From NCBI RefSeq assembly GCF_053078305.1, contig NZ_CP166879.1: a stretch of DNA of 64,000 bases, one strand, 5' to 3'. Numbering within the stretch: position 1 is the stretch's first letter; every line of letters starts with the position of its first letter. The position numbers and the translations under genes were made by a program. The notes below the pieces were generated by a model. That model did no database searches. It saw only the letters and a list, made by a program, of their open reading frames with translations, and was not told the origin of the DNA. Below are positions 21,933 to 22,773 of this stretch, piece by piece.

Positions 21933-22414
21933 TTTTTATTTCTCTTTCAGGTGAATAGATCGTTTTTACTATTTTACCCCGCACGAATCATCGTTAAAAT
22001 CAGATTATAGTGTAGGAATAATTCGTTTTTTACGATCTATAGAAGAATTTGCGCCATCAGCGGTGAGATGCGTTTTTGACGGCTGTAAGCGCTGACGGGT
22101 GACCCTAAGCCCTGATAATCATAGCTTAAGGTGAGGATTTCTGAGGGATTAATTAGGAAAAGTAATAATTAATTTGTTGTCAGTCGGCGATGTTTGTTAG
22201 GCCAATATTTCAAAAATAATCCAGCTTGTCGTCAATAATTGCGATGAAGAGATAAATTAAAGTTAAATAATTAAATCATTAAAAAATTACGCCATAAAAA
22301 TGCGAGGCGTCTTCCGGATTAGAATCGATAAAACAGAATGGGTTAAAGAGAGCGATATAATAGCGGCGGGTGCTTGAGGCTGTCTGTCTCAGGCATTAGC
22401 TGAACGGCAGATAG

Positions 22415-22469
22415 AGAAAAGCCCCGAGTGATATTTTACCATCACCCCGAGGCCCCCTATATGCTGAAC
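22415..22469 (-). ncRNA. sokC: sokC antisense RNA (type I antitoxin), position inferred
   Basis: Placed by offset from hokC/mokC using the remembered K-12 arrangement; not independently verified. Confidence 0.4.
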
Positions 22470-22670
22470 ACATGTAGAGTGCCTCTTACTGACCGTAAGG
22501 TCAAGGAGAAGAGAGCAATGAAGCAGCATAAGGCGATGATTGTCGCCCTGATCGTCATCTGTATCACCGCCGTAGTGGCGGCGCTGGTAACGAGAAAAGA
22601 CCTCTGTGGGGTTCACATCCGAACTGGCCAGACGGAGGTTGCTGTTTTCACGGCTTACGAATCCGAGTAA
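22461..22670 (+). CDS. mokC: mokC, overlapping reading frame that couples hokC translation
   Basis: Internal start MLNTCRVPLTDRKVKEKRA... within track ORF 22428..22670, same frame and stop as hokC. Confidence 0.6.
   Translation: MLNTCRVPLTDRKVKEKRAMKQHKAMIVALIVICITAVVAALVTRKDLCGVHIRTGQTEVAVFTAYESE
22518..22670 (+). CDS. hokC: Hok-family small membrane toxin (type I toxin-antitoxin)
   Basis: 50-aa frame MKQHKAMIVALIVICITAVVAALVTRKDLC.VHIRTGQTEVAVFTAYESE, characteristic Hok/Gef sequence. Confidence 0.85.
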   Translation: MKQHKAMIVALIVICITAVVAALVTRKDLCGVHIRTGQTEVAVFTAYESE

Positions 22671-22739
22671 GAGCAACGGCGGGGAGTGATCCCCGCCACT
22701 TTACAGGTGCTCGCATATCTTCAACGCACCCTATTTTTA

Positions 22740-22772
22740 CCCAGGCCTGCCCACGGGCAGGCTTTTGGGGAG
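22740..22772. terminator. Hairpin between convergent hokC and dnaJ
   Basis: GCCTGCCCACGGGCAGGC stem followed by TTTTGGGG on the + strand, immediately 3' of the dnaJ stop. Confidence 0.45.
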
Positions 22773-22773
22773 G

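Follow-up and report, generated by a model that had tools for sequence, protein, structure and literature searches.

Features of an IS-free hokC/mokC/sokC locus in the nhaA–dnaJ interval of Escherichia coli and a rare E31G substitution in its toxin

The window analyzed, a stretch of 64,000 nucleotides from contig NZ_CP166879.1 (RefSeq assembly GCF_053078305.1), carries a type I toxin–antitoxin locus of the hok/sok kind between the end of nhaA (at 21932) and the convergent dnaJ gene on the minus strand (stop codon from 22774). The features of the locus are compiled in Table 1. The hokC frame, as read from the sequence, encodes the 50-residue peptide MKQHKAMIVALIVICITAVVAALVTRKDLCGVHIRTGQTEVAVFTAYESE, and the mokC leader frame is shared with it, MokC being HokC with an N-terminal extension. 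HokC matched the Pfam profile PF01848 (HOK_GEF) over all of its 42 positions (80.6 bits; E = 5.9e-23; cut-off, 22), and the segment 22368–22520 matched the Rfam model RF01794 (hok leader/sok) over positions 1–157 of 157 (115.6 bits; gathering score, 59). Based on these scores, the hokC and mokC frames are not chance ORFs; the same ORF in near-identical genomes is annotated by RefSeq as type I toxin MokC/HokC. The initial annotation, made from the sequence, had recognized the locus and had described intact hokC (50 residues) and overlapping mokC frames, a distance of about 103 bp from the hokC stop to the convergent dnaJ stop, and the lack of an insertion sequence (IS). All of this was borne out: both ORFs are read in the sequence, and the hokC–dnaJ spacer (22671–22773) measures 103 bp, is free of IS, and holds a single copy of the IS186 target. 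Only its start, at 22400, was placed too late and leaves out the hokC promoter, the mRNA 5′ end, tac, and ucb; the true extent of the locus is ~22330–22770. Elsewhere in the window, Rfam matches above the gathering score were found for tpke11 in the dnaK–dnaJ spacer (23905–23982, minus strand) and for ES003, ES036, and the thr operon leader (4119–4171, minus; 32437–32479, plus; and 37761–37880, minus, respectively). These matches, including the thr operon leader, indicate that the window runs opposite to the K-12 map and crosses the map origin. A tRNA gene was not detected anywhere in the 64 kb.

Table 1. Positions of the elements of the hokC/mokC/sokC locus in the window
Feature	Position	Strand	Basis or remark
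hokC promoter, −10 TATAAT, poor −35 region	22356–22361	+	Read from sequence; aligns with R1 −10 TATGAT
Predicted full-length mokC–hokC mRNA, 5′ end GGGUGCUUGAGG to terminator	22368–22769	+	Ends inferred; Rfam match begins at 22368
tac, at mRNA 5′ end	22368–22380	+	Pairs with fbi in full-length fold; aligns with R1 tac
ucb, GUCUCAGGCAUU	22386–22397	+	Pairs with tac in 3′-truncated fold
SokC antisense RNA, 59 nt	22411–22469	−	MG1655 sokC (16952–17010) transferred through gap-free alignment
mokC Shine-Dalgarno (SD), GAGG	22449–22452	+	Read from sequence; ACCC–CGAGGC block conserved with R1; covered by SokC
mokC leader ORF, 69 residues, same frame as hokC	22461–22670	+	ATG at 22461; corresponds to MG1655 mokC, 16751–16960
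sokC promoter, −35 TTGACC (22504–22499), 17-bp spacer, −10 CACTCT (22481–22476)	22476–22504	−	Read from sequence and R1 homology
dcb, GCCUC, complementary to mok SD	22481–22485	+	Within GCCTCTTAC block, invariant with R1
hokC SD, AAGGAGA	22503–22509	+	Within CAAGGAGAAGA block, invariant with R1
hokC toxin CDS, Hok/Gef family	22518–22670	+	ATG at 22518; TAA at 22668–22670
Codon 31, GGG (Gly); GAG (Glu) elsewhere; SNP at 22609	22608–22610	+	Alignment with K-12
Tyr47 codon UAC followed by G, TadA-type UACG editing motif	22656–22659	+	Read from sequence
3′ GC-rich hairpin, GGCGGGGA-GUGA-UCCCCGCC	22678–22697	+	Predicted folds; contains IS186 target
fbi, CUUCAACGCACCC	22719–22731	+	12 pairs with tac in MFE and centroid folds
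Terminator hairpin, core GCCUGCC-CACG-GGCAGGC, then UUUU	22740–22769	+	Fold; shared with convergent dnaJ

The hokC and sokC promoters and the terminator were positioned by homology instead of by a consensus scan; a simple promoter/terminator scan missed all three, with a weak −35, a weak −10, and a short U-run falling below its thresholds. The −10 of hokC sits 6 nt 5′ of the start of the Rfam model, and the CACTCT −10 of sokC is poor. The sokC promoter region is the same as that of K-12, with zero differences over 22456–22608 and SokC annotated there as an sRNA. SokC is predicted to begin, at its 5′ end, with a single-stranded tail that covers the SD and start of mokC and to end in a terminator hairpin (−18.1 kcal/mol with either allele at 22445) and a U-run; the sokC-equivalent sequence differs from that of K-12 by two SNPs (22445 and 22455). 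At 22445, a C here and an A elsewhere, the position belongs both to the SokC terminator stem and to the hok target hairpin, and the exact 61-mer with 22445C occurs in none of the complete E. coli RefSeq genomes. None of the hok-type regulatory elements is missing; the promoter and terminator, tac and fbi, ucb and dcb, the mok SD, and the 3′ hairpin are all present.

The predicted whole transcript folds at −176.9 kcal/mol (z = −7.18 against 100 shuffles). When the RNA was taken as 22368–22738 or 22368–22775, its ends were closed by a 12-bp tac/fbi helix between 22368–22379 and 22719–22731, with pair probabilities of 0.945–1.0. An R1-type hok control folded in the same way also showed tac/fbi closure (positions 1–10 with 382–391), and on being cut to +361 its tac moved to a local hairpin. 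The window RNA ended at 22705 behaved as the R1 control did, with 22369–22380 pairing to 22386–22397, that is, tac moving to ucb; the GUCUC of ucb is complementary also to GAGGC of the mok SD, as read from the sequence. In the thermodynamic folds the mok SD was paired whether the RNA was full-length or truncated, and SD release was thus not reproduced. For the K-12 transcript extended by 200 nt into IS186, the 5′–3′ closure was absent from the predicted fold. In a control with shuffled 13-nt fbi sequences, the mRNA 5′ end still formed eight or more pairs with the 3′ region in 51 of 200 trials, a poorly discriminating outcome that makes the tac/fbi helix by itself weak statistical evidence. The weight of tac/fbi rests on its homologous position and on a compensatory change with respect to R1 (U22371–A22728 here, C–G in R1). 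The hairpin 22678–22697, which occupies the same position as the R1 hairpin ending the 361-nt truncated mRNA, is likely a stop for 3′ processing. The terminator is 100% identical to the sequence 3′ of K-12 dnaJ. The SNPs at 22445, 22455, and 22609 shift the predicted stability of the mRNA or SokC by no more than 2.6 kcal/mol, which is negligible, and leave tac/fbi in place.

The gene order in K-12 MG1655 is dnaJ (14168–15298), IS186A (15387–16731), hokC/mokC (complement of 16751–16903/16960), sokC (16952–17010), and nhaA. An IS186 copy between hokC and dnaJ in MG1655, which the initial annotation had described, is thus annotated there, and its view that hokC of K-12 is thought to be inactivated by this IS agrees with the literature, in which K-12 hokA, hokC, and hokE are considered IS-inactivated and the IS concerned are absent from wild strains (PMC7337300; PMC12214031). 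The K-12 IS core (CATAAGCGC...GCGCTTATG; 1339 bp) lies between direct repeats of GGATCACTCC, the reverse complement of window positions 22683–22692; read on the hokC strand, the duplicated 10-mer is GGAGTGATCC, inside the hairpin just 3′ of the hokC stop. In K-12, with IS186 located in the loop region of the hairpin, the coding sequence is split from the distal hairpin arm, fbi, and the terminator. IS186 on the 3′ side of gef/hokC has been thought to upset fbi and processing, and the IS-free hokC came from strain ECOR24 (PMC3562002). The IS186-interrupted K-12-type allele was not matched, the window having one target copy and no IS. After in silico removal of IS186 and of one 10-bp duplication, K-12 aligned without gaps with window positions 21933–22872, and the locus differs at three positions only, 22445 (C versus A), 22455 (C versus T), and 22609 (G versus A), the 103-bp 3′ region being identical. 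The native 3′ region with its fold-back element, whose preservation the initial annotation had thought possible, is indeed kept, since fbi is present and identical to the K-12 copy beyond the IS. The alignments with K-12 and R1 hok/sok mapped the sokC promoter, tac, and fbi, and neither fbi nor the sokC promoter is deleted or mutated, fbi being intact and the sokC promoter region being that of K-12. It is highly probable that the window locus is an uninterrupted allele of the chromosomal E. coli hokC/mokC/sokC in the nhaA–dnaJ interval, with R1-like proposed control; the uninterrupted form of hokC is probably ancestral.

The locus was matched in 5425 of the 5426 complete E. coli genomes. The novelty of the IS-free state that the initial annotation had implied is not sustained, as this is the majority state: when an IS-free arrangement was defined as one place covering at least 80% of the query 22360–22790, it was found in ~3814 of the 5426 (~70%), including O157:H7, 042, and Nissle (a slightly different query gave 3791). 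Among the remaining genomes, those sampled at even intervals along the ranking break at query position 334, equivalent to window position 22693, the IS186 site. This broken class comprises ~30% of complete genomes and includes K-12 and B derivatives. The IS186/IS421-family transposase of strain CV839-06 is oriented as in K-12, and strain Y5 (NZ_CP013483.1) has the same element inserted at this site the other way round. For both types of IS186 junction, several strains gave matches with 100% identity and 100% coverage, and the occurrence of both orientations at the same 10-bp target indicates repeated, independent insertion of IS186 at a hot spot. Counts for each orientation class obtained with 74-nt junction queries were dropped; at a coverage of at least 80% they amounted to 2069 and 2053 genomes, in excess of the ~1600 with a broken locus, which points to contamination by other IS186 copies. 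The IS-free state is hence the norm in E. coli, and the 3′ hairpin is a recurrent target of IS186. Two further variants of the site were observed. Y5 carries a second insertion, of the IS150 family, in the hokC leader/SokC region (~2057–3500 of its locus; window ~22444). Strain HS-01 (NZ_CP172817.1) has at the nhaA–dnaJ site a strongly divergent hok allele of 51 residues, annotated as hokD (1485–1640 of its locus), in which leader and coding sequence alike show numerous substitutions and short indels; IS186 occupies the same hairpin position there as well.

By homology with plasmid R1, for which the roles of tac/fbi, ucb, and dcb, along with 3′ processing, binding of Sok, and cleavage by RNase III, have been described (PMC9841398), the locus may operate as follows. 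A constitutive promoter would give a mokC–hokC mRNA of ~370–400 nt, in which tac would pair with fbi so that the mRNA is closed, untranslated, and unbound by Sok. Slow 3′ trimming to the GC-rich hairpin would delete fbi, upon which tac could move to ucb and the ribosome-binding region of mokC become exposed. SokC (22469–22411, minus strand) would pair over the SD and start codon of mokC, blocking translation of mokC and of the coupled hokC, and the SokC–mRNA duplex would be marked for cleavage. Upon loss of SokC, HokC would be made as a 50-residue inner-membrane peptide. Transcription, processing, SokC control, and toxicity of the window locus are what we infer from this homology; the analysis itself shows that the elements are complete in the sequence, how they are predicted to fold, and how frequent the arrangement is among genomes. 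In K-12, the hokC mRNA is reported to undergo A-to-I editing at Tyr47, changing Tyr to Cys (PMC12214031; bioRxiv 10.1101/2025.08.07.668861).

The initial annotation had read residue 31 of Hok as Gly here against Glu in K-12; the alignment confirms this, with an A-to-G change at 22609. The exact 61-mer around 22609 was absent from all 5415 matching complete genomes, and the exact G31 protein (e.g. WP_044189276.1) occurs on about five contigs, as against more than 1000 for E31. One carrier is E. coli strain 48 (JPQG01000002.1), described as a wild subAB2-3 reference isolate (PMC5323612); it matches the window at 100% identity along 6153 bp and is very likely its source or a clone-mate. A second carrier (GCA_014461935.1, contig DABQZM010000007.1) has another haplotype, with 22445A, several more SNPs, and, in a gapped alignment, a 1-nt deletion at window position 22467; the difference in haplotype indicates an independent origin of E31G. 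The deletion in this second carrier would shift the mokC ATG out of the hokC frame, and its upstream neighbors are Tsx-channel and sulfatase genes, not nhaA/nhaR (positions 113–2388 and 2734–3481 of its locus). The Glu concerned (E32 in R1 numbering) is among seven residues conserved in >80% of 1264 unique Hok peptides, and R1 Hok with E32A is still toxic on overexpression (bioRxiv 10.1101/2025.08.07.668861). The window diverges from the nearest complete genomes by ~0.3% (~3 SNPs per kb), a background against which two private SNPs in the locus are no excess. E31G adjoins Cys30, and toxicity is most likely attenuated at most partially. The substitution is rare and is the sole unusual feature of the window locus.

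Several other accounts of these observations have to be weighed. A false G at 22609, introduced when a draft genome was sequenced or assembled, the real protein being E31 HokC, is very improbable; the sole assembly identical to the window is the draft of E. coli 48, but the same G31 protein is recorded under several independent accessions on about five contigs, one with a clearly different flanking haplotype. Derivation of the empty site from an occupied one, with IS186 formerly there and precisely excised in this lineage, is barely credible. IS186 does lie at the identical site in many strains, with nothing direct for excision, whereas the 10-bp target is a single clean copy in the window, most genomes have the site empty, among them strains as different as O157:H7, 042, and Nissle, and the finding of IS186 in either orientation favors repeated gain over loss. 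It seems unlikely that the toxin is disabled or attenuated by E31G, so that the lineage would have inactivated hokC by a point mutation instead of an IS. The conservation of the Glu in >80% of Hok peptides, a fall of 4.9 bits in the Pfam score with E31G (85.5 to 80.6), the absence of the G31 allele from all 5415 complete genomes, its occurrence on two different hokC haplotypes, suggestive of independent origins, and the repeated disruption of hokC elsewhere (by IS186 in both orientations and by IS150 in the leader) all speak for such inactivation. They are countered by the retained toxicity of overexpressed R1 Hok E32A, by the recurrence of one transition among tens of thousands of genomes being a chance expectation, and by the background of ~3 SNPs per kb, in which two private SNPs are unremarkable. 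The more specific proposal that E31G is a naturally selected attenuating mutation, acquired independently in at least two lineages with an otherwise intact IS-free locus, is decidedly doubtful. If it were true, then together with the recurrent IS186 insertions E. coli would have been selected repeatedly to disarm hokC, and Glu31 beside Cys30 would matter for toxicity at native expression. The E31G allele would be an inexpensive natural means of asking whether the conserved Glu beside Cys30 matters for Hok toxicity at physiological expression.

Concerning the functional state, the initial annotation had called the module intact and potentially functional. All cis elements are present, but the step from intact to functional is not upheld, given the ECOR24 hokC locus without killing and the doubt over E31G. 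In two reports, IS-free chromosomal loci, including hokC of ECOR24, are described as showing neither post-segregational killing nor activation by rifampicin (bioRxiv 10.1101/2025.08.07.668861; PMC7337300); the lack of killing by ECOR24 hokC implies that an intact locus may not be an active one. The hokC of the window can be called potentially functional only insofar as all of its cis elements are intact. It is quite possible, although short of probable, that the sequence is intact and its function silent in all tested conditions, the locus being a chromosomal remnant with no role in killing or addiction regardless of E31G. The mRNAs of chromosomal hok loci are poorly translated in vitro (PMC7337300), and each promoter has a weak hexamer, the −10 in sokC and the −35 in hokC. 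Against a silent remnant, the locus is retained in 5425 of 5426 genomes, the regulatory elements are all conserved with R1, with the tac/fbi pairing maintained by a compensatory change, and the HokC coding sequence (with E31) is toxic on overexpression (bioRxiv 10.1101/2025.08.07.668861). Reading the window locus as the uninterrupted chromosomal hokC/mokC/sokC allele, we consider its significance beyond correct annotation to be small, as a long-known locus is seen here in its usual wild-type form. K-12, B, and ~30% of sequenced strains have an IS186-disrupted hokC, and work on native regulation should therefore use an IS-free strain.

Among known systems, hokC/mokC/sokC (formerly gef/sof) of K-12 MG1655 (b4412, b0018, and b4413) is this very locus in an unchanged chromosomal position, with identical promoters, sokC promoter region, hokC SD, and 3′ region; unlike the window, K-12 has IS186A (1339 bp plus the 10-bp duplication) in the 3′ hairpin, whereas the window has E31G and the SNPs at 22445 and 22455. 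The IS-free hokC/sokC of wild E. coli of the ECOR24 type has the same IS-free architecture with fbi intact, and the differences from such loci, ECOR24 being likened by description, are allelic only (E31G and 22445C, each of them seen in no complete RefSeq genome). The IS-free ECOR24 hokC was reportedly characterized by Pedersen and Gerdes in 1999 (Mol Microbiol 32:1090) and is said to show no post-segregational killing. The IS-free arrangement of hokC is thus an already known and already characterized wild-type allele. The hok/mok/sok (parB) locus of plasmid R1 has the same order and logic, from tac, ucb, the mok SD, SokT, and dcb to the hok SD, hok, the 3′ hairpin, and fbi, and the two loci share the same predicted closed and open folds. 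In the alignment with an R1-type locus, the mean column identity is 74%, and conservation covers the −10, the tac block GCTTGAGGCT, dcb, the SD sequences of both mok and hok, the mok ATG, and the coding sequence at its 3′ end. In contrast to the plasmid-borne R1 hok/sok, the window locus is chromosomal, has mokC in frame with hokC, has a weaker sokC −10 (CACTCT versus TATCCT in R1), and has a leader shorter by 18 nt; post-segregational killing is a property of R1 hok/sok but reportedly not of chromosomal hokC (bioRxiv 10.1101/2025.08.07.668861).
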